From positions 32,001 through 96,000 of the IMG/VR virus record IMGVR_UViG_3300035698_018475: a stretch of 64,000 nt of DNA; one strand, 5' to 3'. The notes below the pieces were generated by a model that worked only from the letters and a program-made list of their open reading frames with translations, was not told where the DNA came from and did no database searches. The translations under genes and the position numbers were made by a program. Source of the DNA: a virus. How positions within the stretch are numbered: the first letter of the stretch is position 1; each line of letters opens with the position of its first letter. Positions 4,628-63,318 of the stretch are shown in pieces.

Positions 4628-4679
4628 TGTTTGTTTATGAAAGATAAGGTAAAAGTTACTTTTTATAGGAGATTGACAA

Positions 4680-8186: not shown

Positions 8187-8539
8187 TGGCAAAACTGGGT
8201 TTTAGATATTATAATACTGGATCGAATATATACTTGGTCCTTGTTTATGGGAACAATCAGCATGTTCGGGCATTGGATAATGCTCTGGTGGATTACGACG
8301 TCGATGATTGGGAAGATTATGAACGGTATATGATTGAAATAGGGGATTACTTTTATGAGTATGAACTGCCCGCAGGCTTACTGGACGGTAATTACTCAGT
8401 TGATGTATTTGATGCCCTGGATAGTTTGGCTTACCCCACAGATCAAAAGGTAGGTCAGTTAATATTTGATTTGAAAGATGGGGAATTCCAGACTATAATA
8501 GTTGTTGTAGAAGGTATGGAAGATATTGGGAGTTGGTAA
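8183..8539 (+). CDS. Hypothetical protein
   Basis: GTGA overlap with upstream stop; 118 aa. Confidence 0.7.
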   Translation: MMAKLGFRYYNTGSNIYLVLVYGNNQHVRALDNALVDYDVDDWEDYERYMIEIGDYFYEYELPAGLLDGNYSVDVFDALDSLAYPTDQKVGQLIFDLKDGEFQTIIVVVEGMEDIGSW

Positions 8540-8540
8540 T

Positions 8541-42359: not shown

Positions 42360-43001
42360 GTGGGTGGAGCCAAAGTATTTGTAATCGGGGGTGGTCCTTC
42401 TTTAGAGCAGTTTGATCTATCTCTCCTGGAGCAGGAAGATACTATCTGTGTGAACCAGGCAGTATTTGATGTTCCTAACCCCACTTACCTTATAACCTGT
42501 GATTATACTTTCCTGCATAAGGTAGGGAGACAAAAAGTAGCTAATTCCCCTGCTAGGAAGATATTTGTAGCTCAGTTTATAGGTGATACTTTACAAGATA
42601 TTGATTCTCGTATAGTGGACACCCAGCACAATATTGTTTATGATCTATCACTTTTTGATCAGATTATAAGAGCATATACCAGATCTGGTTTGGGCCTTAC
42701 CTTTAATGATTTTCGGAGTGGTGGTAATAGTGGCTATTGTGGTCTGCAATTGGCAGTACTTCTGGGTTATAGGGAAATAAGACTCCTGGGGTTCGATCTG
42801 GGTGTAAGAGGTAGGAGAACTCATTATCATAATGTTTATAGATCTAGTCCTGAAAAATTTCAGAAAAAACTTGATGCTTATTTGAAAGAGTTTATAATTG
42901 GGATCGAACAGTTGCGGAAGGAGATGCCAGATAGAGAAGTATATTCCTCCAGTCCTTTTAGCAGATTGAATGATTATATCCCCATGAAGGAGGGCGTATA
43001 G
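42360..43001 (+). CDS. DUF115/MAF (MptE-like) glycosyltransferase-fold protein
   Basis: VFVIGGGPSL, TICVN, GGNSGYCGLQLAVLLGYREIRLLGFD, THYH. Confidence 0.7.
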   Translation: MGGAKVFVIGGGPSLEQFDLSLLEQEDTICVNQAVFDVPNPTYLITCDYTFLHKVGRQKVANSPARKIFVAQFIGDTLQDIDSRIVDTQHNIVYDLSLFDQIIRAYTRSGLGLTFNDFRSGGNSGYCGLQLAVLLGYREIRLLGFDLGVRGRRTHYHNVYRSSPEKFQKKLDAYLKEFIIGIEQLRKEMPDREVYSSSPFSRLNDYIPMKEGV

Positions 43002-47311: not shown

Positions 47312-47605
47312 ATGTGGGAAAAGATTTGGGATACCTTAGAAGAGTTTAAGAAGGTAGTATGGTTACTATATGTGATATCTTTTGTATCTGTAATGATATT
47401 TGCATTTAAGTGTGATGGTTATTTGCCTCTTGGTATTGTGGTATTTCTTGGTGGTTTAATATTTTGTCTTTTATTTTCTTGCCATATACTATCAGGTGAT
47501 TTAGGTTATGAGGAATTCTGTATAAAATTGGTATTATTATTTCTTTGTGCAATTGCTACTGCGGTCATTGCAGTGGTACTCGCAAGTAAGGGTAATGGGA
47601 GTTAA
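47312..47605 (+). CDS. Small membrane protein (about 3 TM segments)
   Basis: Long hydrophobic stretches; GGGAG RBS. Confidence 0.65.
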   Translation: MWEKIWDTLEEFKKVVWLLYVISFVSVMIFAFKCDGYLPLGIVVFLGGLIFCLLFSCHILSGDLGYEEFCIKLVLLFLCAIATAVIAVVLASKGNGS

Positions 47606-47607: not shown

Positions 47608-48609
47608 ATGAAAGTACTTATAACAGGAATAACCGGGTTTGTAGGAAGTCACTTGTTGGACTACCTTCTAACTATGCCATATATGGAGATTCATGGTTTT
47701 AGCCGTTGGAGGTCTCCTTTAGACAATATCTGGCATTGTAAAGATCAGATAATGTGTAACCTTCATATGGGGGACTTACTGGATATTTGTTCTATAGAGA
47801 AGTGTATTGAGGAGGTAAAACCAGATATCATATTTCATCTGGCTGCACAGTCTTATGTTCCCTACAGTTTCACAGCACCAATATCCACCATGGAAGTTAA
47901 TAGTGAGGGAACTTTTAATCTTCTTGAAGTGGTGAGACGTATTAGAGATAGATCAAATGGTAAATTTGATCCTGTGATTCATATATGTTCATCTTCTGAA
48001 GTATATGGACAGGTCAAAGAAGAAGATATTCCTATAACAGAGGACCAACTATTTAATCCTGCTTCTCCCTACGGAGTGTCCAAAGTGGCACAAGATATGT
48101 GGGCATTACAATTCTTTACTTCTTATGGGTTGAAAACTATGAGGACCAGGATGTTTACTCACACCGGTCCCAGGAGAGGTTCAGTATTTGTCTTATCTGA
48201 TTTTGCTATGCAGTTGGTTCGTATTGAAAAGCAATTACAAAAGAGAAAAGTTTATGTGGGTAATTTAGATAGCTTACGAACTTTTGCTGATGTGAGAGAT
48301 GCAGTGAAGGCCTATTGGTTGTTAGTCACCAAGTGTCAGTATGGGGAAGCATATAATATAGGAGGAGAAACTACAATAACTGTAAGAGAGATGCTTATGT
48401 GGTTGATAGATGTATCTGGTCTTGTAAATATTCATATAGTAAAAGAACAAAAAAGACTCCGTCCCTCTGATGTTACTAATCAAGTTCCTTGTTCAGATAA
48501 GTTCAAAGAAGCGACTGGGTGGGAACCAGAAATTCCATTTGAAACAACTTTAATAGATACTCTTGACTATTGGAGAAAGTTATATGATGCAAAATCAGGT
48601 CCAGTGTGA
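47608..48609 (+). CDS. gmd: GDP-mannose 4,6-dehydratase family
   Basis: ITGITGFVGSHL, HLAAQSYV, SSSEVYG, PASPYGVSK, GNLDSLRTFADVRD. Confidence 0.88.
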   Translation: MKVLITGITGFVGSHLLDYLLTMPYMEIHGFSRWRSPLDNIWHCKDQIMCNLHMGDLLDICSIEKCIEEVKPDIIFHLAAQSYVPYSFTAPISTMEVNSEGTFNLLEVVRRIRDRSNGKFDPVIHICSSSEVYGQVKEEDIPITEDQLFNPASPYGVSKVAQDMWALQFFTSYGLKTMRTRMFTHTGPRRGSVFVLSDFAMQLVRIEKQLQKRKVYVGNLDSLRTFADVRDAVKAYWLLVTKCQYGEAYNIGGETTITVREMLMWLIDVSGLVNIHIVKEQKRLRPSDVTNQVPCSDKFKEATGWEPEIPFETTLIDTLDYWRKLYDAKSGPV

Positions 48610-49552
48610 TTTATACACGAAGATGTTTCTTTGTCGGTATGTGGAAGAAGTTATCCAGAGGGAGTACTTTGATGATGAAATGAAAACCCCTATGCATATG
48701 TCGATGGGGAGTGAGCATATAGCTGCCGGGTTGTGTCAAGCTCTGGGAGATAGAGGGAGAGTGTTTGGTACTTACCGCTCTCATGCTTTGTACCTCGCTC
48801 GTACTGGAGATACTGATGGGTTCTTCGCTGAGATGTATGGTAAGCAAACTGGGTGCTGCAGGGGAAAAGCTGGGTCCATGCACTTAAATAATCCTAGGTT
48901 AGGTTTCATGGGAGCCTCGGCAATTGTTGGTAGTATTATTCCAGTAGCAGTGGGGTATGCATATAGTAACTTAAAACAAGGTATAAATGACATCACTGCA
49001 GTTTGCTTCGGGGATGGTGCTACAAACGAAGGTACTTTCTGGGAGAGTTTGAATCTTGCCTGTGTTAAGAAACTTCCAATTCTGTTTGTTTTGGAAGATA
49101 ATGATTTAGCAGTTCATACTTCTAAATGTGAGAGAGATGGGTATGATTTAAGAGATGTAATTAAAGGATTTAACTGTGTATCTAATCAATCTAGCTGGAC
49201 AGGAGTTGATAGAGTATATGATATTGTTTGTTCTTGTTTATCTGAGATGAAAGAAAAAGGTGAACCTGGATTTTTAGATTTTAAGTACTATCGTTATTTG
49301 GAGCATGTTGGGGTCAAAACCGATTTTGATAAGGGGTATCGTTCAGAAAATGGGTATAAGAAATGGTTGGAGAGAGATCCACTTATGCTATGGAGAAAAA
49401 AATTACAGGAAGATTTTGGTTTTCACCCTGACCACTTATTAGCAATCGAACTAGAAGTTACAAATAAGGTGGAAGTGAGTTTACAAAAGGCAAAGGAAGC
49501 CCCTTTTAGTCCTGTACAAGAACTTTATGCTGGAGTATATTATGACGAGTAA
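48584..49552 (+). CDS. TPP-dependent dehydrogenase E1 alpha-like subunit
   Basis: YRSH, GKAGSMH, GDGATNEG...N TPP motif, YRYLEHVG, RDPL. Confidence 0.9.
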   Translation: MMQNQVQCDLYTKMFLCRYVEEVIQREYFDDEMKTPMHMSMGSEHIAAGLCQALGDRGRVFGTYRSHALYLARTGDTDGFFAEMYGKQTGCCRGKAGSMHLNNPRLGFMGASAIVGSIIPVAVGYAYSNLKQGINDITAVCFGDGATNEGTFWESLNLACVKKLPILFVLEDNDLAVHTSKCERDGYDLRDVIKGFNCVSNQSSWTGVDRVYDIVCSCLSEMKEKGEPGFLDFKYYRYLEHVGVKTDFDKGYRSENGYKKWLERDPLMLWRKKLQEDFGFHPDHLLAIELEVTNKVEVSLQKAKEAPFSPVQELYAGVYYDE

Positions 49553-50591
49553 TAGATCAATTACTTACTGTCAAGCAATAAGTGAAGCCACTCATCAGGC
49601 AATGGAGAGAGATCCCAAGGTATTTCTATATGGTATAGGAGTACCGGATCATACTCAAATATATGATAGTATAAAAGGTGTGGTAGATACCTTTGGGGAG
49701 GAACGATGTATGGATGTTCCTCTTTGTGAAGATACCTTGGCCGGGTTTGGTTTAGGTGCCGCTCTTGGTGGACTTAAGCCTGTGTTTATCAACATAAGAG
49801 TCGATTTTCTTCTTCTGGCTATGAATCAGTTGGCCAAAACAATATCCAGTTATAGGTACAATTCTGGGGAAGAATTAGAAGTACCACTTGTTATTCGTGT
49901 TCTTATAGGGAGGGGATGGGGACAGGGATGTCAGCATTCTAAGAGTTGCCAATCTTTGTTTGCACATATACCGGGATTGAAAGTGGTAATGCCCACTACT
50001 CCAAGAGATGCCAAAGGATTGTTCCTAGCGGCACTGGAAGATAAAAATCCTGTCATTATCCTGGAACACCGGTGGTTGTATTGGCAAGAGGGTATGGTCG
50101 AGGAAGAACCATTTATTACTCCGATAGGACAGGGGGAGGTCCTAAAGGAAGGGATTGATATTACAGTAGTAGCTACTTCATGGATGAATGTGGAGGCAAT
50201 TCATGCGGCTAACATTTTGGAGAAGCATAATGTTAGTGTGGAAGTGGTGGATCCTAAATCGGTATATCCTTTGGATGAAGATATTATTTGTAATTCAGTT
50301 AATAAAACCAAGCATTGTATTGTGGCAGATTATGATTGGCACTTTTGTGGTTTTAGTGCAGAAATAGCTTCTGTGGTTAATAAGCAATGTTTTCATCGGT
50401 TGGAAAAACCAGTTACCAGGATAGGTTTTGCACCTACTCCTTGTCCTACTGCAAGACATTTGGAGAATGAGTTTTATCCAAATGCGATTACCATAATACA
50501 AGCAGTAGAAACTATGTTAGGACTTATTGAGATAGATCTGTCGAGTGAAGAATTCTATAGTCATGAGAAGAAGTTCAAAGGACCATTTTAA
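49542..50591 (+). CDS. TPP-dependent dehydrogenase E1 beta-like (transketolase-C) subunit
   Basis: DVPLCE, GLKPV, QHS, PGLKVVMP, NPVIILEHRWLY, VEVVDPKSVYPLD. Confidence 0.9.
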   Translation: MTSNRSITYCQAISEATHQAMERDPKVFLYGIGVPDHTQIYDSIKGVVDTFGEERCMDVPLCEDTLAGFGLGAALGGLKPVFINIRVDFLLLAMNQLAKTISSYRYNSGEELEVPLVIRVLIGRGWGQGCQHSKSCQSLFAHIPGLKVVMPTTPRDAKGLFLAALEDKNPVIILEHRWLYWQEGMVEEEPFITPIGQGEVLKEGIDITVVATSWMNVEAIHAANILEKHNVSVEVVDPKSVYPLDEDIICNSVNKTKHCIVADYDWHFCGFSAEIASVVNKQCFHRLEKPVTRIGFAPTPCPTARHLENEFYPNAITIIQAVETMLGLIEIDLSSEEFYSHEKKFKGPF

Positions 50592-50606
50592 TTGAGGTGA
50601 TTAGAG

Positions 50607-51314
50607 ATGTGTTGGCATGACAGAATAGCATATGAACAGATTCATCAAATAGCTTATGACTTTGGGATCTCTGTTTTTATTGAAACCGGTACCTTCAAAG
50701 GAGTGAATGCTAAGTTTCAATCAAAGAATTTTAAGACTGTAATATCTTGTGAGATCAATAAGACTTATTTTGAAGCAGCAAAAGAGCGGACAAAGAATTG
50801 TCAAAACGTACATCTACTTAATGACAGTAGTGTACAGTTCCTTGCAATGTTTACAGCTTTATATAATGCGGCTGAGAGAGAAGATATTGTATTTATTTAT
50901 CTGGATGCACACTTTTATGATCCTAACCTCCCGAAGGAGAAGAGATGGGTTGTTATTGAAGAGTTGAAGGCCCTACAAGGATTTCACAATTGTATTATCT
51001 GCATTCATGACTTTCATTGCAACGGATTAGGAGGTTTAACTTATGATAATATTCCTCTTGATTTTGATCTGATAAAGGACTATATTTATAAAGTTAATGA
51101 AAACTTTTGGTTGTATTGTAATACAAAAGAGAGTTGTGAGATACACACTGAACAATCAATCATAGGAGTTCCGGGACTAGAGGCTGATGAAGAGACCGTG
51201 GATAATATAAGGTTCTCCCATACTACTGAAGCCAGGAAGTATCGTGGTATGCTATATTGTGTACCATCTTCATTAGATCTTTCAAGATATCAATTAAGGA
51301 GTTTTAGAGAATGA
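50607..51314 (+). CDS. Class I SAM-dependent methyltransferase-like
   Basis: FIETGTFKG, ISCEI, DS..FL, IYLDAH, IHDF. Confidence 0.75.
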   Translation: MCWHDRIAYEQIHQIAYDFGISVFIETGTFKGVNAKFQSKNFKTVISCEINKTYFEAAKERTKNCQNVHLLNDSSVQFLAMFTALYNAAEREDIVFIYLDAHFYDPNLPKEKRWVVIEELKALQGFHNCIICIHDFHCNGLGGLTYDNIPLDFDLIKDYIYKVNENFWLYCNTKESCEIHTEQSIIGVPGLEADEETVDNIRFSHTTEARKYRGMLYCVPSSLDLSRYQLRSFRE

Positions 51315-52027
51315 GTGATCCAGTGATTAGTTTAATAGCAACAGCTATACACACAGAGTTTTGGCAGCAACTTCATGCAGATTTAAGTAATGGTAATACT
51401 ATACCGTTTGAAATGGTATTTGTAGGGCATACTCCACCAACCTTTCCTCTACCGGAAAACTTTATTTACATTCATAGTGAGGCCAAACCAGTTCAATGCC
51501 TGGAGACAGCCTGTAGGAATGCTAAAGGTGAGTATGTTATGATGGTTATGGATGATCAAACTCTACCTCCACAGATGTTGAATACTATGTATTCTTATGT
51601 TAAGCGTATGATTAGTGATAAAGCTAATGTTATGGCCAGGTTTGCTGATTCAGTGGAAGGTCCTCCAAGGGATCTTCTATTAGTGTATGATGTGTATAAT
51701 CCTGATTCTCCGGTTCTGGGTGTTAATTTTATTATCAGACGTAATCTTTGGCAAGAACTAGGAGGTTTGGATCGGCGATTTTATGCGTTCAAAGCAGATC
51801 TTGATCTGCAGATGAGAGTATATGAGGCTGGGGGGCATCCTTTTTTGGTTCCAAATTGTCTCGCCAGAGAAAAACCACGACCAGGTTCTCGATTGACCAA
51901 TACTTATAGTGCATCGGATAGTGCTACATTATACTCATTTTGGACACTTCCGGATGGGTCTGTCAGTAGGAAGCGTTTAGATGAAGTTCAAACTTTTACT
52001 GCTGAGGAGATTTCAATAGTAAGGTAG
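51311..52027 (+). CDS. GT2-fold glycosyltransferase, paralogue 1 of 9
   Basis: PVISLIA, FEMVFVG, KPVQC, MDD, GGLD..F...DLDLQMR. Confidence 0.75.
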   Translation: MSDPVISLIATAIHTEFWQQLHADLSNGNTIPFEMVFVGHTPPTFPLPENFIYIHSEAKPVQCLETACRNAKGEYVMMVMDDQTLPPQMLNTMYSYVKRMISDKANVMARFADSVEGPPRDLLLVYDVYNPDSPVLGVNFIIRRNLWQELGGLDRRFYAFKADLDLQMRVYEAGGHPFLVPNCLAREKPRPGSRLTNTYSASDSATLYSFWTLPDGSVSRKRLDEVQTFTAEEISIVR

Positions 52028-52039
52028 AAAGGTTTTATT

Positions 52040-52777
52040 ATGAGTGATCCTATTATTAGTGTAATAGCTACCGCAGTTCATACTGAGTTTTGGCAGCAAT
52101 TACATGCAAATTTAAGTAATGGTAATACCATACCATTTGAAATAGTATTTGTGGGGAATGTAAGACCAACCTTTGATCTACCAGAAAACTTCATATACAT
52201 CTGTAGTGGAGCCAAACCGGTTCAATGTTTGGAAACCGCTTGTAGGAATGCCAGGGGTGAGTTTGTTATGATCATAGCGGACGATCACTTACCTCCTCCA
52301 CAGATGTTGAATACTATGTATTCCTACGTACGTAGGATGATAAATAGCAAATGTGTTGTTGTGGCAAGATACATGGATGATATAGAGGACTGGATTCGTG
52401 ATGAATTACTAAGTTTTTATGTACATGGTGCCACTTTTATAGAGGTTAGTCCGGTTGTTGGAGTAAATACAGTCCTTCGGAGAAGTGTTTGGACTGAATT
52501 GGGTGGTTTAGATAAAAGGTTTATATCGGTAAAATCTGATCTTGACATGCAGATGAGGTTCTATGAAGCTGGGGGACATCCTTTTATTGTTCCCACCTGT
52601 ATAGTACGGGAAAGATCACATGATACACGTGATAGATTATTAGATGCAAGTGGGGATACAGATCTAGAGACTCTACGTACTCTTTGGATAAAGGATGATA
52701 TAATAAGTAGACAACGTTTAGGTAGTGTTCAATCTTTTACAAGTGATGAGATACCTATTGTTAGGGAGAGAAATTGA
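52040..52777 (+). CDS. GT2-fold glycosyltransferase, paralogue 2 of 9
   Basis: Same motifs (ADD, GGLDKRF, DLDMQMR). Confidence 0.75.
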   Translation: MSDPIISVIATAVHTEFWQQLHANLSNGNTIPFEIVFVGNVRPTFDLPENFIYICSGAKPVQCLETACRNARGEFVMIIADDHLPPPQMLNTMYSYVRRMINSKCVVVARYMDDIEDWIRDELLSFYVHGATFIEVSPVVGVNTVLRRSVWTELGGLDKRFISVKSDLDMQMRFYEAGGHPFIVPTCIVRERSHDTRDRLLDASGDTDLETLRTLWIKDDIISRQRLGSVQSFTSDEIPIVRERN

Positions 52778-53496
52778 TGAGTACTCCAGTTATTAGTGTC
52801 ATAGCTTCAGCAATTTTTACACAATACTGGGAAGAACTATATGAGCAATTATCTCATAAGAACAAAATACCTTTTGAGATAGTATTTGTGGGAAATGTAA
52901 GACCAATCTTTCCTCTACCAGAAAACTTCATTCATATCTATAGCGAAACCAAACCGGTTCAGTGTTATGAGATAGCTGCTAGGAATGCTAAAGGGAAATT
53001 CTTAATGACTTGTCAAGACGATTTAGTGTTTCCCGAAAAGTTTCTGAATGTCATGTATATGTATCTAGTTCGTATGCCTAATCCAGCGAAGATAGTTCTA
53101 ACGCCAAGATTTAGTGATCGTTTGGATGGTCCACCACAAGATCAGTTGTTGAGTATATATCCAAACGATCTTGAATCGCCTATAGCAGGCGTTGGGACAA
53201 TTTATAATCGACAATTATGGTATGATCTGGGAGGGTTGGATAGAAGATTTAACTTATTATTCTACGACCTTGATATGATGATGAGGATATATGAAGCTGG
53301 GGGACATCCTTTTATTGTTCCCAGTTGTATTGTTCGAGAACGACTACGTGGTGATCGGCCAAGGTTGATTGATGACTATCATCCGGATAGAAAATTATTG
53401 TATGCACTTTGGTTATTACCCAGCGATAAGCTTAGTAAGACACGATTACTACCTCTTGAACCCTTTGGAAAAAATGAGATTTCAATAGTGAGGTAG
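52777..53496 (+). CDS. GT2-fold glycosyltransferase, paralogue 3 of 9
   Basis: Same motifs (QDD, GGLDRRF, DLDMMMR). Confidence 0.75.
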   Translation: MSTPVISVIASAIFTQYWEELYEQLSHKNKIPFEIVFVGNVRPIFPLPENFIHIYSETKPVQCYEIAARNAKGKFLMTCQDDLVFPEKFLNVMYMYLVRMPNPAKIVLTPRFSDRLDGPPQDQLLSIYPNDLESPIAGVGTIYNRQLWYDLGGLDRRFNLLFYDLDMMMRIYEAGGHPFIVPSCIVRERLRGDRPRLIDDYHPDRKLLYALWLLPSDKLSKTRLLPLEPFGKNEISIVR

Positions 53497-53498
53497 AT

Positions 53499-54287
53499 AT
53501 GGATTTAGATCTAGAAGGTAAGAGAGCAATAGTTACTGGTGGAAGTCATGGTATTGGCAGGGCCATATGTATAGCTCTGGCGGAAGAAGGATGTAATGTG
53601 GTTGTATGGGGAAAAACAGCAGAGCATGTTAAGGAAGTGGGAGATAGTTTACATAAGAAGTTAAGTGTAGATGTGGATCATCTGGGAATAGTTTGTGATG
53701 TTATGGATCGGATGGATGTTGATTCTAAAATTGATGCGATTAAAAGAAAATGGCAGGGAGTAGATATAGTTATAAATAATGTAGGTGGTGGAGGTAGGTG
53801 GGGATCCCCACTCTATGAAGAAACTCCCGTACATATATGGGAAGAAGTTTATAAGAAGAACGTGCTAACAGCAGTTAAATTTACTAATACCTTTCTTCCT
53901 GGGATGATAGAAAACAAGTGGGGAAGAATTATAAATATAGCTTCTATGTATGGAAAAGAGGGAGGAGGAAGACCCTGGTTTTGTTGTGCAAAGAGTACAA
54001 TGATAGCTATGATGAAAAGTATGTCCAAAGAGAAGGAATATGCTAAGAGGAATATAACCTTTAATAGTGTAGCTCCCGGAAATATCTTGATTCCTGATAC
54101 TGGATGGGATAAAATACAAAAAGATGACAAAAAGTTATTTGAAGAAGAAGTGAGTAAAATACCTATTGGTAGAATGGGTACTGTAGAAGAAGTAGCGTCA
54201 ATTGTTACTTTCTTATGTTCTGATAGAGCTTCATTTATAAATGGAGCTTGTATTAGTGTAGATGGTGGACAGAGTAACAGTTTTTGA
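53499..54287 (+). CDS. Short-chain dehydrogenase/reductase (classical SDR)
   Basis: VTGGSHGIG, INNVGG, IAS, FCCAK, NSVAPG, PIGRMG, VDGG. Confidence 0.9.
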   Translation: MDLDLEGKRAIVTGGSHGIGRAICIALAEEGCNVVVWGKTAEHVKEVGDSLHKKLSVDVDHLGIVCDVMDRMDVDSKIDAIKRKWQGVDIVINNVGGGGRWGSPLYEETPVHIWEEVYKKNVLTAVKFTNTFLPGMIENKWGRIINIASMYGKEGGGRPWFCCAKSTMIAMMKSMSKEKEYAKRNITFNSVAPGNILIPDTGWDKIQKDDKKLFEEEVSKIPIGRMGTVEEVASIVTFLCSDRASFINGACISVDGGQSNSF

Positions 54288-54301
54288 TAAGGAGTAATAC
54301 A

Positions 54302-55327
54302 ATGAGTAAGTTTAGGAGTAAAAGAGAATCTTCAGAGGAAGTACCGAAAGAGAAAATAGTTCCAAGAAAAGTTGTAAAATCTTCAAAAAAGGTTAATGAT
54401 AAGATTCAACTTTTTCATGTTGGAGGCGTTGGTAGTATAGGTCCAGCTGATGTACTTTTTGGTTTAGGACCAGATGGTATTCATCAGACTGTATTTGAAG
54501 CCAATAGTGAAGCACCACCTTCAAGTTCTCCCGTTCCCATTACACTTATTCCCAAGTGTTTGTGGAGTACTGAGAAAGAAATCGATTTTCATACCATGTG
54601 GAAACCCTTGGCTAGTAGTGTGTTTCGTGGAAGTAGGAAGAATAGAAAACTTCAACGAATGGATGTTGATAAGAGGTTAGTTGTGGAAGAAATGTGTCAT
54701 GTGGTAAAAACAGAGAGGTTGGCAGCAACTACTCTTGATAAACTAATTGAAGATAAAGAAGTACCCATCCCTGACTTTTTGAGTATGGATGTTCAAGGAG
54801 CTGAGTTGGATATTATGAAGGGTGCAACAAAAGCTTTTGAAACAGACTTATTGGGTGTTTGTACAGAGATGGAGTTTCAAGAGTTGTATGAAGGCCAACC
54901 TTTATTTGCTGATCAGGATGCTTTTCTGAGAGCAAATCAGTTTACTTTATGGAGTTTCTTTAATGAAGAGTATTGGTATCCTGGTATTGTAATGGCACAA
55001 GGAGCTCTTACGGTAGTTGAAGGCGTTTATTTCCGGGATATGAGTTGGTTTATCAAGAGGTATAAGGATGATAAGTGGTCTCTTCTTGAAAGACTACTTA
55101 AACTGGCTCTGGTAACCAAGCAGTTTGGTTTTATCTCTTATGCAGTCTCGATACTGGATTGGATTTCTTACCAGATCAATGATACATATGCAGAGTTTCA
55201 AGCAGATTATAGGTACGCTTGGTTTGCAAATTCTATAATTGCATACCATACTTCTATGTGTAATGAGAGAATACCTTTTGAACAGATTCCCTCATGGATG
55301 CAAGTACTGGGTAGGCCTTCCAAATAA
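54302..55327 (+). CDS. FkbM-family methyltransferase
   Basis: HVGG, FEAN, TTLD, FLSMDVQGAELDIMKG, ELYEGQPLF. Confidence 0.85.
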   Translation: MSKFRSKRESSEEVPKEKIVPRKVVKSSKKVNDKIQLFHVGGVGSIGPADVLFGLGPDGIHQTVFEANSEAPPSSSPVPITLIPKCLWSTEKEIDFHTMWKPLASSVFRGSRKNRKLQRMDVDKRLVVEEMCHVVKTERLAATTLDKLIEDKEVPIPDFLSMDVQGAELDIMKGATKAFETDLLGVCTEMEFQELYEGQPLFADQDAFLRANQFTLWSFFNEEYWYPGIVMAQGALTVVEGVYFRDMSWFIKRYKDDKWSLLERLLKLALVTKQFGFISYAVSILDWISYQINDTYAEFQADYRYAWFANSIIAYHTSMCNERIPFEQIPSWMQVLGRPSK

Positions 55328-55357
55328 AAAGTAATTGGAAGTAAGGAGTAAAATATA

Positions 55358-56344
55358 GTGTTAAATGCAGAGATATGTAATTATCTTAAGGGTAAGAATT
55401 GTTTGGTCACTGGTGGGACTGGTTTGATCGGCCGGCAGGTGGTGGAGTTGCTTGTTGGTTGTGGAGCAGAAGTTACTTCGGTTTCTTTGGATGATCTAAA
55501 ACTGAATGATAAGGTAACCTATGCTAAAATGGATCTATCTGGTTTTGAGGATTGTCTAGCTCTAACTTATAAGAAGGAGTGTGTATTTCATGTTGCTGGT
55601 ATAAAGGGTTCTGTCCAGGTAACCAAGGAAAAACCAGCAAGTTTCTTCGTACCACTTCTAATGATGAATACAAACATATTAGAAGCTTGTAGGATAAACG
55701 AAGTTTCGAAAGTGGTTTATACTAGTTCTGTAGGAGCTTATTCCAGTGCTGAAGTGTTTCAGGAAGTATATGCTTATGATGGGGTTCCTATGGATGAGTA
55801 CCCCGGTTGGGCCAAGAGGATGGCTGAACTACAAATACAGACTTATATGAAACAATATGGAATATGTAACTTTGCAATAGTTCGTCCGGCCAACATCTAT
55901 GGACCGGGGGATAACTTTGATCCTGATAATGCAATGGTGATTCCATCTCTTATAGCTAAGATAGTGCGGGGGGACGATCCTATTAAAATCTGGGGAGATG
56001 GGAAGGCCATAAGAGATTTTGCTTACAGTTTGGATGTGGCAGAAGGAATTATTCAAGCTTTGTATTATGGCACATTTGGTTCACCTATCAACCTTGGGAG
56101 TGGAGTAGGTGTAACTATAAGAACCTTGGTGGGAACTCTCCGTGAGATTGTGGAGTTTAATTATGAATTTGATGAAACAAAACCATCGGGTTATCCCAAG
56201 AGAGTTGTGGATATTTCTCATGCGAGAAGAAGATTAGATTATAATCCTTCTGTAAGTTTAAGGGAAGGTCTACAGGAAACTTACAATTGGTACAAAGAGT
56301 TTGGTAATCAAGAAGCAGATAAGAGAAAGAATTATTTCAAGTGA
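55358..56344 (+). CDS. NAD-dependent epimerase/reductase (GDP-fucose-synthase-like extended SDR)
   Basis: VTGGTGLIG, VRPANIYGPGDNFD, WGDGKAIRDF. Confidence 0.88.
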   Translation: MLNAEICNYLKGKNCLVTGGTGLIGRQVVELLVGCGAEVTSVSLDDLKLNDKVTYAKMDLSGFEDCLALTYKKECVFHVAGIKGSVQVTKEKPASFFVPLLMMNTNILEACRINEVSKVVYTSSVGAYSSAEVFQEVYAYDGVPMDEYPGWAKRMAELQIQTYMKQYGICNFAIVRPANIYGPGDNFDPDNAMVIPSLIAKIVRGDDPIKIWGDGKAIRDFAYSLDVAEGIIQALYYGTFGSPINLGSGVGVTIRTLVGTLREIVEFNYEFDETKPSGYPKRVVDISHARRRLDYNPSVSLREGLQETYNWYKEFGNQEADKRKNYFK

Positions 56345-57129
56345 GCAAACCATTGGTTAGTATATATGCTGCGGCAATACGTCCTCAATTGTGGATGAGA
56401 TTGTATGAATCATTACAGAAGAATAATACTGTTGATTTTGAACTTGTACTTGTAGGTCATATACCCCCAACTTTTAATCTACCGGGTAATATGATACATA
56501 TCAATTCTGGAGTTAAGCCTATACAATGTGCTGAAATAGGATTTAGAGCTTGTAAGGGGGATTTCTGTATCTTAGGATTCGATGACCTCATTTTTTGGGA
56601 TGGGTGTTTAGATATTTTATATGAAAAGTTTATGGCAGTGGGTAGCGATTGGTTTCTCCCATGCTGTACACAGTGTAATCCGTGGGATGTTCCACTTACT
56701 CCTCTCGATATGAGATTTTGGGCTGGTATTGAATCCTCACCTATACTTCCCATTTGTGGTATGTATAAAAGGAGTATACTCGAAAGTATAGGTCCTAGAG
56801 ATCGAAACTTTGTCCGCTCTTATGCTGATGTGGATCTGGCTATGAGATTTTATGGACAGGGTGGGAGAGCCGAGATTTTTGAAGTTGCTAAAGTAACTGA
56901 AAGACCTATAGATGCTACATTTGATTCTGGTTTGAATTGGTTGGGATCACAGAGAGATGGACCATATTTGAGAGATCTTTGGACTGTGATTAACCCTGAA
57001 AAGGATTGGCCTATTTATTGTTCTAATGGTGAGTCACATATTTCTAAAGTAAGATTACGTCCAGTTGAACCTTTTGAAGGGGATTTGTTACTTAAATCAC
57101 AAGGAGTAAATGATGGTGATTGGCAGTGA
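56341..57129 (+). CDS. GT2-fold glycosyltransferase, paralogue 4 of 9
   Basis: KPLVSIY, FELVLVG, KPIQC, FDD, DVDLAMR, RPVEPF...SQG. Confidence 0.75.
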   Translation: MSKPLVSIYAAAIRPQLWMRLYESLQKNNTVDFELVLVGHIPPTFNLPGNMIHINSGVKPIQCAEIGFRACKGDFCILGFDDLIFWDGCLDILYEKFMAVGSDWFLPCCTQCNPWDVPLTPLDMRFWAGIESSPILPICGMYKRSILESIGPRDRNFVRSYADVDLAMRFYGQGGRAEIFEVAKVTERPIDATFDSGLNWLGSQRDGPYLRDLWTVINPEKDWPIYCSNGESHISKVRLRPVEPFEGDLLLKSQGVNDGDWQ

Positions 57130-57880
57130 AAAACCTTTAGTCAGCGTTTATCTACCGGCAATTAGACCACACTGGTGGATGCGTATGCATGAATCATTGC
57201 AGAGTAATAAGGATGTGGATTTTGAACTTATTTTTGTGGGTCATGTTCCTCCAGACTATGTTCTACCAGGTAATTGGACTTATATCAATTCTTCTGTCAA
57301 ACCGGCCCAATGTGCAGAGATAGGTTTTAGAGCCTGTAAAGGTGAGTTTTGTATGGCACTTGCTGATGATATTGTATTTGGTGAGAGGTGTTTGGACATA
57401 TTGTATAATAAGTTTATGTCTCTCAATAATGATTTGCTAGTGGTATCTTGCATACATCATGCCGGAGGGAAGGCTCTACCAAAAGAAACCAGTACTTTCA
57501 TTCCCGGCAGAGCGGATACTCCTAATCATCCAATCGGAGGTATGCTTAAGACTGAGGTATGTAGATCTTTAGGACCTAGAGATAGGAATTTTGTTTGTAC
57601 CTATTCCGATGCTGATATAATCTTTCGATTGTATGCTTTAGGAGGTCAAAGTGTGATTTGTGATGAAGCTCATGTTCATGAAGTAAATCCTCCCGATACA
57701 AAATTTGACTCAGGATTGAACTGGATAGGTAAAGATATAGATTGGCCACTGATGTTAAGTTTGTGGTTTGATGGGAATACCTATATAGTTAATAGGAAAC
57801 GTCCTGTTGAACCTTTTGTAGATCAAGATCTTTTAACTATCTCTCAAGGTCCTAAAGGACCAGAAGGAAGGTGGGTATGA
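57113..57880 (+). CDS. GT2-fold glycosyltransferase, paralogue 5 of 9
   Basis: AAGGAG RBS; same motifs; ends SQGPKGPEGRWV. Confidence 0.75.
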   Translation: MVIGSEKPLVSVYLPAIRPHWWMRMHESLQSNKDVDFELIFVGHVPPDYVLPGNWTYINSSVKPAQCAEIGFRACKGEFCMALADDIVFGERCLDILYNKFMSLNNDLLVVSCIHHAGGKALPKETSTFIPGRADTPNHPIGGMLKTEVCRSLGPRDRNFVCTYSDADIIFRLYALGGQSVICDEAHVHEVNPPDTKFDSGLNWIGKDIDWPLMLSLWFDGNTYIVNRKRPVEPFVDQDLLTISQGPKGPEGRWV

Positions 57881-58689
57881 TGAAACCCGTAATAAGCCTA
57901 TATGTTCCAAGTATACGTCCGGAGAATTGGTTAGCTCAATATACATCTATTAAAGAAACTAATGTAGTACCTTTTGAGATTATTTATGTAGGACATGTTC
58001 CTCCACAACCAGTGGGCTTACCTCCTGAAATCATCTATATTCACTCTCCTGTTAAACCTTCTCAGTGTGCGGAGATTGGTCGTAGAGCGTGTGAAGGTGA
58101 ATTCTGTATATTTGCTCAGGATGATATCGGGTTTGGTCCAGGTACTCTGGATATCTTACTTGCTAAATTCCAAGAAATGGGGAATGATAAGGTTGTTATA
58201 TCTTGTATGCCTTACTTGAATAATGTTCCATTAGAGACTGCAAGATATAGATTTTGGGATAGTGAGAGGGGTAGTCCTATGACTCCTTTGTGTGGTCTTT
58301 ATAAGAAGAGTGTTCTTGAGCAGTTGGGTGGTATTGATAAAAACTTTATCTGTACAGCTTGGGATATTGATATAGCCATGCGGCTATTTGAAATAGGAGG
58401 GTATGGTATATTCTGTGAGGGAACTATTGCTAATGAGGTTGTCCTTCCGAACATTCCAAGATTATGTTCTTATGGGGAAAATACAGATCGTCCATATATG
58501 CAAAATTTGTGGTCCATGACTCATGAAGAATATGCTAAAGTGGATAAGAGTACATTTAAGATACATTATACTAATCCTTTACGAGTTCCTGATGGTGTTA
58601 TATGTAAGAACAGAAGAAAACCTGTTGAGAGTTTCTCTCCCATAGACATACTCGTTGTATCACAGGGGCCAAAAGATAAATGGGTATAG
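57877..58689 (+). CDS. GT2-fold glycosyltransferase, paralogue 6 of 9
   Basis: ATGA overlap; QDD, GGIDKNF, DIDIAMR. Confidence 0.75.
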   Translation: MMKPVISLYVPSIRPENWLAQYTSIKETNVVPFEIIYVGHVPPQPVGLPPEIIYIHSPVKPSQCAEIGRRACEGEFCIFAQDDIGFGPGTLDILLAKFQEMGNDKVVISCMPYLNNVPLETARYRFWDSERGSPMTPLCGLYKKSVLEQLGGIDKNFICTAWDIDIAMRLFEIGGYGIFCEGTIANEVVLPNIPRLCSYGENTDRPYMQNLWSMTHEEYAKVDKSTFKIHYTNPLRVPDGVICKNRRKPVESFSPIDILVVSQGPKDKWV

Positions 58690-58690
58690 T

Positions 58691-59701
58691 ATGGGTTATA
58701 TTAGAAGACATGTTAGGAGGAATCGTCGTACGGCTGGTCGTGGTAGTAGTACCACCGCTCGTACTCATAAGTCTTCTGTGGAGTCATCAGTAAGTGTAAA
58801 GAAAGAAGAATCAGTTATTTTGGATAGTTATATGGGAGAAGCTTTTGTAAATAAAGAAGATATAAAAATGAGTTGTAAAAAACCAGTTATCAGTATTTAT
58901 ACACCAAGTATACGACCTTGGTTTTGGGCAAGGATGTATAATTCCCTACTTTCAAGTTCCATACCATTTGAAATTATTTTTGTTGGTCCTAAAAGATCTT
59001 GTTATAAAATACCACCAAACATACATCATATTCGTTCTAATGTCAAACCAGCTCAATGTGCTGAGATTGGTTTGCGAGCTTGTAAAGGTGAATATTGTAT
59101 GTTTGCCCAGGATGATATAGTTTTTAGTAAGAACGCTTTAGATATTTTATATGAAACTGCAGTTTCAGAAGGTGATGATGTTGTAGTGTCTTGTATTCCT
59201 TTTGTTAATGGGAAGAGGTATAATACTTCCTACTACAGATTTTTTCCGGTAGAAGATAAGAATAAAATTCATAAGAAAAATAGTCCTATTATTCCTCTTT
59301 GTGGTATATATAATCTAGATGTTGTACGAGAATTGGGTGGAGTAGATAGGAATTTTATCAGTTCTTTTTGGGACATTGATTTAGTTATGAGGTTCTATGA
59401 AGCTGGTGGAAGAGCAATTTTCTCTGAATCTGCAGGAGCCAATGAAATTATTATTTCCCCATTAGGGAGATTAGGATGTGAAGGATTAAAAGATCGAACT
59501 TTAATAGAGGCATTATGGACCTTGAAGCATAAAGAGTATAATGCTTTAAGTCATACTACTAGAGAGAGTATAGAGATTATACATTTTGATCCAAACATAC
59601 ATGTTGGAATTATTCTCAAGCATAGGACTCATCCAGTCGGATCTTTTAGAGATCATAATCTTTTAACGGTTTCTCAAGGTCCAAAAGGTAGATGGGTATG
59701 A
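58691..59701 (+). CDS. GT2-fold glycosyltransferase, paralogue 7 of 9, with Arg-rich N-terminal extension (alternative start 58868)
   Basis: MGYIRRHVRRNRR... then KPVISIYTPSIRP core. Confidence 0.75.
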   Translation: MGYIRRHVRRNRRTAGRGSSTTARTHKSSVESSVSVKKEESVILDSYMGEAFVNKEDIKMSCKKPVISIYTPSIRPWFWARMYNSLLSSSIPFEIIFVGPKRSCYKIPPNIHHIRSNVKPAQCAEIGLRACKGEYCMFAQDDIVFSKNALDILYETAVSEGDDVVVSCIPFVNGKRYNTSYYRFFPVEDKNKIHKKNSPIIPLCGIYNLDVVRELGGVDRNFISSFWDIDLVMRFYEAGGRAIFSESAGANEIIISPLGRLGCEGLKDRTLIEALWTLKHKEYNALSHTTRESIEIIHFDPNIHVGIILKHRTHPVGSFRDHNLLTVSQGPKGRWV

Positions 59702-60540
59702 AACCAGTTATTAGTATATACACACCAAGTATTCACCCAGAGTTTTGGATGAATATGTACAATTCTTTACTGGGTAATTCTATCTCCTTCGAGTTGATAT
59801 TTGTTGGTCCAATTTCTCCTGATTACGATCTCCCTGCAAACATCCATCATATATATACTGAAGTCAAACCAGCTCAATGTGCAGAAATAGGTTTTAGAGC
59901 CTGTAAAGGTGAGTTCTGTATGTTTATAGCTGATGATATAACTTTTAGTGAAAATGCTTTAGGTATTTTATATGAAATCTCAGTTTCAGAAGGTGAAGAT
60001 GTTGTAGTATCTTGTGTACCATCTGTAAATGGTACACTTATTGATACTTCTTACTACAGATTCTTCCCAATAGGACCAGAATCGGTTACTCGCAAAAAAG
60101 ATAGTCCCATAACTCCTTTAGGAGGATTATATAGGAAGGATACCATAAAAGAGTTAGGAGGAATTGATAAGAACTTTGTCTCTGTTATTTGGGATTTTGA
60201 TATAGTTATGAGATTTTATGAACAGGGTGGAAGAGCAATGTTTTGTCCTCAAGCGATTGCTGATGAGACTGTCGTATGTGAGAGAAGTAGACTAATTGCC
60301 GAAGCAGCAGTAGATCGTACTTTACTGAACCATTTATGGTTGATCAATTATCACGATTATATGAGTATGAGCGAAGAGCAGATAAATGAACTTGAAGTTT
60401 GTTACGTAGATGATTACCAGATAGTGGATTCTATAGGTCATGCGGGAGTTATTCTCAAACATAGAACCCGTCCTGTTGAACCTTTTGAAGATAAAGATTT
60501 ACTAACTATATCTCAAGGACCTAAAGGAAGATGGGTATGA
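59698..60540 (+). CDS. GT2-fold glycosyltransferase, paralogue 8 of 9
   Basis: ATGA overlap; same motifs. Confidence 0.78.
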   Translation: MKPVISIYTPSIHPEFWMNMYNSLLGNSISFELIFVGPISPDYDLPANIHHIYTEVKPAQCAEIGFRACKGEFCMFIADDITFSENALGILYEISVSEGEDVVVSCVPSVNGTLIDTSYYRFFPIGPESVTRKKDSPITPLGGLYRKDTIKELGGIDKNFVSVIWDFDIVMRFYEQGGRAMFCPQAIADETVVCERSRLIAEAAVDRTLLNHLWLINYHDYMSMSEEQINELEVCYVDDYQIVDSIGHAGVILKHRTRPVEPFEDKDLLTISQGPKGRWV

Positions 60541-61373
60541 AACCTGTAATAAGTATATATGCGCCCAGTATTCACCCAGAGTTTTGGATGAATATGTACA
60601 ATTCTTTACTGGGTAATTCTATTTCGTTTGAGTTGATATTTGTTGGTCCAGCCCCTCCTGATTATACTTTGCCTCCAAATACCCATCATATTAACAGTCC
60701 TGTTAAGCCTGTACAGTGTGCAGAGATTGGTCTTAGGGCCTGTCAAGGCGAATTTTGTATGTTCATGGCTGATGATATTGTTTTCAGTGAGAAGGCTTTG
60801 GACATTTTATATGAGTTTAGTATATCATATGGTGAAGATGTAGTTGTATCTTGTGTACCGTCCCTTAATGGTAGACTTATTGATACTTCTTATTATCGTT
60901 TCTTCCCGGTTGATAATACTGGTATTCCCATCCATAGGAGAGATAGTCCTATAACTCCCATAGGAGGATTGTATAGAAAAAGTACTATAATAGAATTGGG
61001 TGGAGTAGATAGGAATTTTATCAGTTCTTTTTGGGATGTTGATTTATCTATGAGGTTTTATGAAGCTGGTGGGAAAGCACTATTTTGTCCTGCGGCGGTT
61101 GCTGATGAGATTATTCTGACTGAAAGGGGAAGATTAGCTTTACTGGGAGCAACAGATCGTCTTTTACTGGAAGAATTATGGACCATGCTTTATGATGATT
61201 ATATGGATATGAGTGAAGAAGAGAGAAGTAAAATTGAGGTTTGTCATGTTGATGAGCATTTATCAGTAGGAGTTATTCTCAAACATAGAACTCATCCAGT
61301 TGAACCTTTTGAGGATTATAATCTAATGACTGTATCACAGGGTCCTAAGGGATTAGAATGTAGATGGCCATGA
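60537..61373 (+). CDS. GT2-fold glycosyltransferase, paralogue 9 of 9
   Basis: ATGA overlap; same motifs. Confidence 0.78.
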   Translation: MKPVISIYAPSIHPEFWMNMYNSLLGNSISFELIFVGPAPPDYTLPPNTHHINSPVKPVQCAEIGLRACQGEFCMFMADDIVFSEKALDILYEFSISYGEDVVVSCVPSLNGRLIDTSYYRFFPVDNTGIPIHRRDSPITPIGGLYRKSTIIELGGVDRNFISSFWDVDLSMRFYEAGGKALFCPAAVADEIILTERGRLALLGATDRLLLEELWTMLYDDYMDMSEEERSKIEVCHVDEHLSVGVILKHRTHPVEPFEDYNLMTVSQGPKGLECRWP

Positions 61374-62791
61374 GAGTTCTTTTTGTTGTAGCACAATTAG
61401 ATTTTGCCGATCATATAGCAGTGGCTTATCTGTCTGCAGTGGCGAAGCAATTAGAATGGGATACCTCTTTTTGTAACTTAGCAACTGATGATCTTAATTG
61501 GATGTTAGCTTATTTTGCTCCAGCAGTTGTGGCTTATTCAGCAAATATCATGGGATTTAGAAAGTTGGTAGAAGCACACGAACTTGTTGCTAAATTACGG
61601 GTCCAAACAGTTTCTATCATGGGTGGTCCTCATCCAACAGTATCTCCTGAGACTTTTCTTGAGAGTGGGATGGATGCTTATTGTATAGGAGAAGGAGAAG
61701 GTGCTTTCAAAGATTTTCTTATAGCAGTAGAAAGTGGTCAACCCTTTTATGATATTCCAAATCTCATAACCAAATGTACTGCTCACCCTGGTTGGCAACA
61801 AAATGAAGTTCGTCCTACAATAAAAAATTTGGATTCCTTACCAATGCCAGATAGGGATCTAACTATTGCTAATTCTTTTCTTCGGGATGTACCTAAAAAG
61901 ACTTTTTACGCAACTCGTGGTTGTCCTTTCCAATGTAATTACTGTTGCAATAATCACTATCATAAATTATACAAAGGGAAGGGACCATTGGTTAGAAGAT
62001 TTTCAGTGGATCGTCTTATTGATGAGATCCTAGATGTTAAGTCCAAATATAGAATGGACTTCGTCAAGTTCGGGGATGATCTTTTTGCTACAAAAGCAGA
62101 TGAGTGGATGTATAAATTTGCCATTGCTTATAGTACAGAAGTGAGTATCCCTTTTAATTGCTATCTGCGTTTTGATAGGGTGGATAAAGATCTGTTAAGG
62201 TTGTTGAAGGAAGCGGGTTGCTATTCTGTTCACTTATCTGTTGATAGTACTTCTCAATATATTCGAGAAACTGTATTGAATAGGCAGATGAAGGACGTTA
62301 ATATAGTTGGTACTTTGAAGATGATACAAGATATGGGTCTGAGGAGTTGGGTGAATTTCATGCTTGCCCTTCCTGAATCTACCCTACAAAATGATTTAGA
62401 TGCTATCAAAGTTTGTAGAGAAGCAAAAGTTACTTATGCATCCTATACTACTACTGATCCCATGAGAGGTACTAAATTGTTTGATTCGTGTGTAGAGAAG
62501 GGATATATAGATAAGGATTATGAAGGGGATATGACTAAGTTATGGGAGAGGTCTCCTTTATCTTGTTTCAGTAAGAAAGAGAAGAATATAAGATACAATA
62601 TATATTTTCTCGGTTCTTTCATTACTAAACTACCCCTATCACTATATAAGTTTGGGCTGTTTCTAATAAAACATGTTCCTCCAAATCCATTATTCAGATG
62701 GATTCATAATTGGTATTATCGTTACAGTATCACACATACAATCTTTCAATTACCGAAAGGAGAGATATGGAAACTGAAGAATCAAAGTTAG
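61370..62791 (+). CDS. Cobalamin-binding radical SAM enzyme
   Basis: N-terminal B12 domain (GGPHPT, IGEGE), RGCPFQCNYC CxxxCxxC, FGDDLF. Confidence 0.9.
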   Translation: MRVLFVVAQLDFADHIAVAYLSAVAKQLEWDTSFCNLATDDLNWMLAYFAPAVVAYSANIMGFRKLVEAHELVAKLRVQTVSIMGGPHPTVSPETFLESGMDAYCIGEGEGAFKDFLIAVESGQPFYDIPNLITKCTAHPGWQQNEVRPTIKNLDSLPMPDRDLTIANSFLRDVPKKTFYATRGCPFQCNYCCNNHYHKLYKGKGPLVRRFSVDRLIDEILDVKSKYRMDFVKFGDDLFATKADEWMYKFAIAYSTEVSIPFNCYLRFDRVDKDLLRLLKEAGCYSVHLSVDSTSQYIRETVLNRQMKDVNIVGTLKMIQDMGLRSWVNFMLALPESTLQNDLDAIKVCREAKVTYASYTTTDPMRGTKLFDSCVEKGYIDKDYEGDMTKLWERSPLSCFSKKEKNIRYNIYFLGSFITKLPLSLYKFGLFLIKHVPPNPLFRWIHNWYYRYSITHTIFQLPKGEIWKLKNQS

Positions 62792-63318
62792 TGGTACAGG
62801 GAACAAAATTACCCGGAGTCCTTCTATTTAAGAGAGAGGCGTTTGAAGACCATCGTGGGAGTTATGAACCATTGTGGAATCTACCGGTATATGAAGATAT
62901 AATTCAAAAGATGTGTCATGTAAGACTATCTTTTAAGGAGGACGACATTGCAGTATCTACTAGAGGGGTTCTGCGTGGTTTACATGGGGATGATAGGACT
63001 TGGAAACTAGTAACTTGTTTGAAGGGGAAGTATTACATAATTGTTGCTTGTTATGATCAGGCATCTCCTAACTGTTTTGATTGGGAATCTTTTGTTCTAT
63101 CAGATAGTAATAAGTTACAACTATTGATTCCTCCTCATTATGGTCATGGTTATTGTGTTATGAGTGAGGAAGCTATTTTCCACTACAAGCAATCCTGTAT
63201 TTACCAGGGTATGAGTGAGCAGTTTACAATAAGATATGATGATTCCAGATTTGGTTTTTGGTGGCCTATACAAAATCCTATTTTGTCCTTAAGAGATTCG
63301 AAAGGTGAAACAGTATGA
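62767..63318 (+). CDS. rmlC: dTDP-4-dehydrorhamnose 3,5-epimerase (RmlC/RfbC family)
   Basis: FEDHRG, STRGVLRGLH, QLLIPPHYGHGY, WWP...PILSLRD. Confidence 0.88.
   Translation: METEESKLVVQGTKLPGVLLFKREAFEDHRGSYEPLWNLPVYEDIIQKMCHVRLSFKEDDIAVSTRGVLRGLHGDDRTWKLVTCLKGKYYIIVACYDQASPNCFDWESFVLSDSNKLQLLIPPHYGHGYCVMSEEAIFHYKQSCIYQGMSEQFTIRYDDSRFGFWWPIQNPILSLRDSKGETV

Follow-up and report, generated by a model that had tools for sequence, protein, structure and literature searches.

The stretch of DNA analysed here (the window) comprises 64,000 nucleotides and corresponds to positions 32001–96000 of the IMG/VR virus record IMGVR_UViG_3300035698_018475, which is 124,322 bp long. Nearly all of its genes lie on the + strand, including every gene given below with window coordinates, and coordinates are those of the window unless a genome position is indicated. 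Because the window codes for a prohead protease, a tail sheath, gp25 and further baseplate proteins, the virus is assigned to the myoviruses. A glycan island of about 24 kb (42360 to ~66880) stands immediately after the baseplate genes, and its central part is formed by a cassette that begins with three overlapping genes (47608–50591). These encode a sugar-nucleotide 4,6-dehydratase and the two subunits of a thiamine diphosphate (ThDP)-dependent enzyme that resemble the alpha and beta chains of the E1 component of 2-oxoacid dehydrogenases. This E1-like pair, which probably acts in the carbon branching of a nucleotide sugar rather than in pyruvate oxidation, is the subject of the present analysis.

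The E1 alpha-like subunit (48584–49552; E1_dh, 2e-37) is encoded in an open reading frame (ORF) that opens at a TTG at 48563, its likely start being the ATG at 48584 behind a GGAGAA sequence. This start overlaps the dehydratase stop codon (48607–48609) by 26 nt. The E1 beta-like subunit (49542–50591; Transket_pyr and Transketolase_C) likely starts at the ATG at 49542 behind GGAG, with an alternative ATG at 49527, and overlaps the E1 alpha stop codon (49550–49552) by 11 nt. The initial annotation of this locus had described the dehydratase as translationally coupled to the pair, and the two stop/start overlaps agree with that description. The catalytic motifs are intact, comprising the ThDP motif (GDG...N) and the catalytic His of alpha together with the Glu and His of beta; these His and Glu residues do not discriminate E2-dependent from E2-free enzymes. 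A single-chain identity of the YerE type (TPP_enzyme_N/M/C) was rejected, the domains being E1_dh and Transket_pyr/Transketolase_C. The E1 alpha gene provides the only E1_dh match in the whole phage genome, and its product has thousands of metagenomic homologues at 51–66% identity, compared with ~30% to solved pyruvate dehydrogenase (PDH) E1 alpha subunits.

Heterotetrameric E1 components are found in the pyruvate, acetoin and branched-chain 2-oxoacid dehydrogenases, and the phage pair shares their fold, domains and cofactor motifs. Unlike them, it has no dihydrolipoyl acyltransferase (E2) or dihydrolipoamide dehydrogenase (E3) partner, scores below curated cut-offs, falls outside the sampled E1 proteins encoded next to E2 and carries a different active-site loop. 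The alpha subunit reaches 221.6 bits against an NCBIfam PDH E1 alpha equivalog cut-off of 393.85, and the beta subunit 280.2 bits against a PDH E1 beta cut-off of 321. Searches of the whole 124,322-bp record with PF00198 (E2), PF00364 (lipoyl) and PF07992 (E3) returned no match, so the absence of lipoyl/E2 and E3 genes, first noted for the window, holds for the entire record. These results bear on the possibility that the pair is an auxiliary metabolic gene product that docks on the E2/E3 core of the host and boosts pyruvate oxidation during infection. Such a role would fit the automatic annotation of homologues as 'pyruvate dehydrogenase E1' and the conservation of the catalytic His residues used for lipoyl acetylation; against it stand the scores of both subunits below the NCBIfam PDH cut-offs and the embedding of the pair in a sugar operon through gene overlaps.

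The dehydratase (47608–48609; 333 aa) matches the Pfam families GDP_Man_Dehyd (2e-72) and Epimerase and belongs to the branch of guanosine diphosphate (GDP)-sugar 4,6-dehydratases that includes GDP-heptose dehydratase and Rmd. Its best match in the PDB is the Campylobacter GDP-D-glycero-D-manno-heptose 4,6-dehydratase 7us5 (254 bits), followed by Rmd (199 bits), with true Gmd proteins at no more than 147 bits. The catalytic motifs S-x-E (SSSE) and YxxxK align with those of 7us5. The earlier identification of this enzyme as Gmd was rejected, since its score with the gmd equivalog model, 170 bits, falls short of the cut-off (415) and it is closer to the GDP-heptose 4,6-dehydratase than to characterised Gmd.

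The genes that follow the pair encode putative tailoring enzymes. The product of 50607–51314 is assigned a class I S-adenosylmethionine (SAM) methyltransferase fold from alignment and an AlphaFold2 model (pLDDT 91.8); a Pfam search of this protein gave no match, and the top Foldseek matches of the model all belong to the class I SAM methyltransferases, although the TM score is modest (~0.47). The place of this protein after E1 beta is kept in phages and in some bacteria; bacteria mostly carry a different, 316-aa class I methyltransferase there. A FabG-like ketoreductase of the short-chain dehydrogenase/reductase (SDR) superfamily is encoded at 53499–54287 (adh_short, 2e-41; best PDB matches FabG) and is of the classical type, in contrast to the extended SDRs active on ring ketones. 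It is followed by an FkbM-family methyltransferase (54284–55327; Methyltransf_21 and TIGR01444) and by an extended-SDR reductase/epimerase similar to GDP-L-fucose synthase (55358–56344; Pfam Epimerase), which scores 148 bits with the NCBIfam Fcl model, below its cut-off, and has GDP-L-fucose synthases as best PDB matches. An SDR and epimerase/reductases downstream of the pair, as initially described, are thus present. Farther downstream lie a B12-binding radical SAM enzyme (61364–62791; Pfam B12-binding and Radical_SAM), an RmlC-fold 4-keto-sugar 3,5-(or 3-)epimerase of the GDP-heptose type (62710–63318), the homology of which starts near ORF residue 31, and a second extended-SDR epimerase/reductase of 321 aa (Pfam and PDB matches), which begins at 63315, reaches the end of the window at 64000 and continues to genome position 96280. 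The PDB matches of the RmlC-like epimerase favour the Campylobacter GDP-heptose epimerases 7an4, 7m14 and 8db5 (103–107 bits) over true RmlC (83 bits).

The cassette is widely distributed. A motif scan with one genome per species detected the cassette type of E1 alpha in 214 genomes, and the cassette occurs in at least 214 bacterial and archaeal species; 80 loci were fetched, and the position of the dehydratase was counted in 77 bacterial loci. The fetched loci come from Omnitrophota, Patescibacteria, Planctomycetota, Dehalococcoidia, Desulfobacterota, Nitrospirota, Proteobacteria, Bacteroidota and one Nanoarchaeota genome. Across many phyla, related phages and IMG/VR contigs, tblastn comparisons reveal a conserved order of dehydratase, E1 alpha, E1 beta, methyltransferase, SDR, Fcl-like reductase, in some copies the B12 radical SAM enzyme, RmlC-like epimerase and second epimerase. 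The stretch from the dehydratase through the E1 pair and the methyltransferase to the SDR keeps its order in three related phages and ~80 bacterial loci. Orthologues of the dehydratase, 56–61% identical to the phage protein, lie directly 5' of E1 alpha in 45 of the 77 loci and within 4 kb of it in 20 further loci, so that the two genes adjoin or are at most 4 kb apart in 65 of 77. In the fetched loci, tblastn identities to the phage proteins are ~50% for bacterial E1 alpha, ~60% for E1 beta and ~48% for the RmlC-like epimerase. SDR orthologues (44–51% identical) follow E1 beta and the methyltransferase in 31 loci, Fcl-like reductases (~60%) occur in 61 loci and second epimerases (~42%) in 65, and B12 radical SAM orthologues (49–59%) are found inside some bacterial and viral copies. 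An HddA-like kinase is present in 35 loci, and the bacterial cassette often stands beside GmhA, GmhB and HddA; in one locus examined, GmhA and GmhB score above their curated cut-offs. These neighbours tie the bacterial cassette to the supply of GDP-heptose.

Viral copies show a comparable arrangement. Three related phage genomes (~124–127 kb) and a 56-kb fragment carry, after the baseplate genes, the dehydratase, E1 alpha, E1 beta, methyltransferase, glycosyltransferase, SDR, FkbM and reductase genes. Other IMG/VR contigs of up to 548 kb also contain the cassette, some of them including the HddA-like kinase. E1 alpha and E1 beta do not overlap in every copy: in the IMG/VR contigs L120, L121, L127 (E1 alpha at 10001, E1 beta at 11532) and L123 (E1 beta at 13880), the two genes are ~0.6–3 kb apart. 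The passenger hypothesis, namely that the cassette was recently captured from a bacterium and has no role in the phage life cycle, draws on the nesting of the phage clade within the bacterial radiation. Four phage lineages, however, keep the module in the same position after the baseplate genes, with protein identities of 54–67%, intact motifs and no stop codons, which argues for long retention under selection; mere carriage of the cassette is therefore scarcely to be expected.

No E2 or lipoyl match was found in any cassette locus. Among five cassette-bearing genomes searched in full for E2, two Omnitrophota genomes, the complete 1.4-Mb chromosome CP070780 (G001) and G005, are devoid of any E2, and a 'pyruvate dehydrogenase' annotation in either would mislead metabolic reconstruction. 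In the other three, E2 adjoins other E1 paralogues and never the cassette copy. The occurrence of the family in genomes without E2 is a further argument against a role as a pyruvate-oxidising auxiliary metabolic enzyme.

Several variants of the cassette were also encountered. A Saganbacteria metagenome-assembled genome (L035) has two E1 alpha/beta pairs in one locus (2036–4900 and 8001–10000). The diverged pair follows a dehydratase, shares 38–39% identity with the phage pair and has its branch immediately outside the cassette clade; no dehydratase match adjoins the cassette-type pair at 8001. Another variant, with genes for a DegT-family enzyme and an oxidoreductase after E1 beta, is present on the plasmid NZ_CP029359 (L112) of Azospirillum thermophilum, a culturable bacterium, and in locus L007.

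A phylogeny of the E1 pair had been proposed as a check on its assignment. The sugar-branching pairs were represented in the trees by the TxnB3/TxnB4 type, AviB1/B2 and AlmDI/DII being left out; TxnB3 of the trioxacarcin cluster (P0215) was retrieved in a homology search that started from a Streptomyces plasmid pair. E1 matches in the plasmid collection are at most 36% identical, with none in the cassette clade, and served as outgroups. The E1 alpha tree unites the phage with the cassette clade (support 100) on a long stem (~1.0–1.15). A split with support 98 groups this clade with the TxnB3-type clade, the DegT-linked Azospirillum plasmid pair, a second dehydratase-linked pair and one more E2-less pair, and places all seven E2-adjacent E1 alphas on the opposite side. 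The same split appears in the E1 beta tree, with support 99 and a branch length of 0.86. When the cassette was held with the nearest E2-adjacent (housekeeping) pair as an alternative topology, the approximately unbiased (AU) test rejected this alternative for E1 beta (p 0.013) but not for E1 alpha (p 0.197). The check thus came out favourably in the separation from E2-adjacent E1s in both trees and in the beta test and unfavourably in the alpha test; given these two p values, the deep placement of the cassette clade away from E2-adjacent E1s is supported, though not beyond doubt.

Active-site signatures follow the same division. The E2-less sequences, including TxnB3, share the motif [KR]-[TSC]-P-x-H-x-S-x-G, where E2-adjacent sequences have G-[FLW]-x-H-L. 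A second signature of the E2-less sequences is YR[YW]xEHVG with a loop longer by two residues after it; its E2-adjacent counterpart is YRxRGHSxxDP. The loop of the EHVG region is the one that lines the entrance for the lipoyl-lysine in the human and Geobacillus E1 structures. The shared E2-less clade and these loop and indel signatures indicate common ancestry with the genetically validated TxnB3/TxnB4 pair. The position of the phage pair apart from E2-adjacent E1s in both trees and the rebuilding of the canonical lipoyl-lysine channel loop complete the case against docking on a host E2/E3 core, a role that we regard as very improbable. The initial proposal that the virus does not carry a pyruvate dehydrogenase metabolic gene is accordingly supported by the absence of E2/E3, the conserved sugar-gene order, the trees, the loop signatures and precedents in the literature.

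These precedents are the enzyme pairs grouped as AlphaKADH2, known from actinomycete antibiotic pathways: TxnB3/TxnB4 (trioxacarcin), AviB1/AviB2, Pau11/12 (equivalent to Plm8/9), KstD7/D8, AlmDI/DII and KbDH alpha/beta. Loss of txnB4 abolishes a two-carbon-branched octose (PMC5659172), and in vitro, KbDH alpha/beta needs no E2 for the carboligation of pyruvate to ketones (PMC12247030); a further precedent is available (PMC4802897). In known pathways, the branch ketone is subsequently reduced, methylated or transaminated (PMC12247030), and reduction and methylation match the SDR and methyltransferase found here. The phage pair resembles these systems in being a two-subunit E1-like ThDP enzyme without E2/E3, near a nucleoside diphosphate (NDP)-sugar 4,6-dehydratase and followed by genes suited to tailoring a branch ketone. 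As in the AlphaKADH2 context, it is a stand-alone E1 alpha/beta inside an NDP-sugar pathway, adjoining an enzyme for the keto-sugar acceptor. It differs in that it belongs to a separate deep clade, 36% identical to TxnB3; its neighbours are of the GDP-heptose/GDP-mannose type, unlike the dTDP-deoxyhexose-type neighbours of AlphaKADH2 pairs; and its cassette resides in a phage glycan island and in bacterial surface-glycan loci, not in antibiotic clusters. In the literature searched, sugar branching of the E1 alpha/beta type is described only from actinomycete antibiotic pathways. Taken together, the proposal that the phage pair is a sugar C-branching enzyme working without E2/E3 is largely supported by gene context and sequence comparison.

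ThDP-dependent branching is also known from yersiniose A biosynthesis by YerE/YerF and from ErwE and MyGE of LPS pathways, in which a ThDP enzyme puts an acyl branch on a 4-keto sugar nucleotide destined for surface glycans, with subsequent action of a reductase (PMC9306805). The phage module resembles these systems in its general logic. However, YerE is a single-chain, acetolactate synthase-like member of the decarboxylase superfamily and acts on a CDP-3,6-dideoxy sugar, whereas the phage enzyme is an E1 alpha/beta pair of another family. A 2025 review ascribes cell-surface branched sugars to YerE-like enzymes and describes viral orthologues as unexplored (PMC12247030). Our literature search found nothing tying phages or GDP-heptose to ThDP branching enzymes. 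The capsular GDP-heptose enzymes of Campylobacter jejuni (7us5; Cj1430/DdahB/MlghB; Fcl-like C4 reductases) include the solved proteins most similar to the dehydratase and the RmlC-like epimerase of the phage. In contrast to the phage module, the pathways of Campylobacter are without a ThDP enzyme; heptose-activation genes, on the other hand, are absent from the phage.

On this basis, the three overlapping genes, together with the methyltransferase and the FabG-like SDR, probably constitute a nucleotide-sugar tailoring module in which the E1 pair adds a pyruvate-derived two-carbon branch to a GDP-4-keto-6-deoxy sugar. Each chemical step is our inference from the genes, and so are the identity of the donor, of the nucleotide and of the acceptor carbon and the final acceptor of the glycan. 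The dehydratase would convert a GDP-sugar of the host, GDP-D-glycero-D-manno-heptose or, in a host without heptose, GDP-mannose, to the GDP-4-keto-6-deoxy sugar. E1 alpha/beta alone, with ThDP and Mg2+, would then decarboxylate pyruvate, and the hydroxyethyl-ThDP carbanion so formed would attack the ring ketone to give an acetyl-branched tertiary alcohol (+44 Da). The FabG-like SDR would reduce the branch ketone to a 1-hydroxyethyl group, and further modification of the sugar would fall to the methyltransferases. The RmlC-like epimerase and the two extended-SDR enzymes may set the ring stereochemistry before branching or act on a second, unbranched sugar, and the many soluble glycosyltransferases of the island would transfer the product onto an acceptor.

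The same setting and enzyme class could also serve other chemistry, such as the use of a 2-oxo acid other than pyruvate (hydroxypyruvate, 2-oxobutyrate or a hydroxylated keto acid of greater length, as for ErwE and MyGE), branching at C3 instead of C4, or a non-branching ThDP reaction of the keto-sugar, for instance of the acyloin-cleavage type. Donor specificity is not readable from sequence, YerE-like enzymes accept C4–C8 donors (PMC9306805), AlphaKADH2 enzymes branch at either C3 or C4 (PMC12247030), and the cassette clade is set apart from characterised members by its long stem. The B12 radical SAM enzyme and the methyltransferases likewise point to a more elaborate product. On the other hand, the sole AlphaKADH2 enzyme assayed in vitro prefers pyruvate (PMC12247030). 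The phage island contains no aldolase or keto-acid-forming gene. To our knowledge, there is no ThDP-dependent ring cleavage of an NDP-sugar. Such other chemistry is considered unlikely, and the addition of a pyruvate-derived two-carbon branch is preferred.

A number of observations nevertheless weigh against this preferred pathway. Members of the cassette clade are known from genes alone, and the identity of phage E1 alpha to TxnB3 (36%) is little above that to the best E2-adjacent paralogue (34%). The trees derive from quick searches, carry SH-aLRT support only and contain long branches, and the AU test for alpha tolerates a housekeeping placement. The epimerase and the 4-reductases could not act on a sugar after branching at C4. 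Moreover, searches of the phage genome for sugar-activating genes (NTP_transferase, GHMP kinase) gave no match, so the substrate depends on the host, from which the activated sugar must come.

The remainder of the glycan island is dominated by transferases. It opens with a sialyltransferase-like/MptE-like protein (42360–43001), identified by phrog_4603, weak MptE-like matches and paralogy; a 479-aa paralogue closes the island just past the window (genome 97439–98878; L002:3439–4878). The phrog_4603 matches of the two paralogues have values of 6e-18 and 2e-28. Two such proteins thus bracket the island of a phage that has no NeuA- or NeuB-like genes, a search of its genome for nonulosonic-acid genes (CTP_transf_3, NeuB) having given no match. 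Directly 5' of the dehydratase lies a gene for a small hydrophobic protein of 97 aa (47312–47605) with ~3 candidate membrane helices in a hydropathy scan; it has no Pfam or PHROG match and is the sole membrane candidate in the island. Three GT-A-like glycosyltransferase paralogues (51311–52027, 52040–52777 and 52774–53496), recognised by weak Glyco_trans_2_3 matches and all-against-all BLASTP, and six further paralogues (56341–61373; BLASTP family, weak GT2 matches) form a family of nine in two tandem arrays (51311–53496 and 56341–61373), with mutual identities of 27–68% and, for most members, marginal Pfam GT2 matches. The island also holds further GT2 and GT1 genes. It contains no flippase, polymerase or priming transferase, which suggests that the glycan may be assembled in the cytoplasm, on a protein or another soluble acceptor. 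No terminator-like sites were found between 42000 and 56100, and promoter-like sites are not commoner than in shuffled sequence.

The virus itself is distant from cultured phages, its tail sheath being at most 36% identical to theirs. A nucleotide search of the region against cultured phages gave no match, and a protein search with E1 alpha returned only matches below 30% identity, several on records of a few kb. Although IMG/VR classes the record under direct terminal repeats, a script found no exact terminal repeat of at least 50 nt in the stored sequence; its CheckV completeness is 80.

The product of the pathway had initially been proposed to be an NDP-branched octose. The idea of branching is favoured by the context, the trees and the signatures. 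The octose is not established: the affinities of the dehydratase and of the RmlC-like epimerase and the genes around the bacterial copies point to chemistry of the GDP-heptose type, and the scaffold is probably not the one first named. Since the phage enzyme is most similar to the Campylobacter GDP-D-glycero-D-manno-heptose 4,6-dehydratase, the product may be a branched heptose derivative instead. A broader proposal is advanced only tentatively and is rather more doubtful. It holds that an undescribed sugar, a GDP-linked 6-deoxyheptose derivative with a carbon branch, methylation and at least nine carbons, is made by this phage and by hundreds of bacteria and archaea, most of them uncultured (Omnitrophota, Patescibacteria, Planctomycetota, Dehalococcoidia, Nanoarchaeota and others); from it the phage, with its nine GT-A paralogues and two sialyltransferase-like enzymes, might build a glycan in the cytoplasm for its own virion or for a component of the host envelope.

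The module is compact, and its chemistry is open to direct assay with recombinant proteins. The automatic label 'pyruvate dehydrogenase E1' can mislead metabolic reconstructions of bacteria with small genomes and lists of viral auxiliary metabolic genes. If the proposed pathway is correct, the module would extend E1-type branching, on a GDP-heptose-like scaffold for which no description was found, to surface and virion glycans and to phages.

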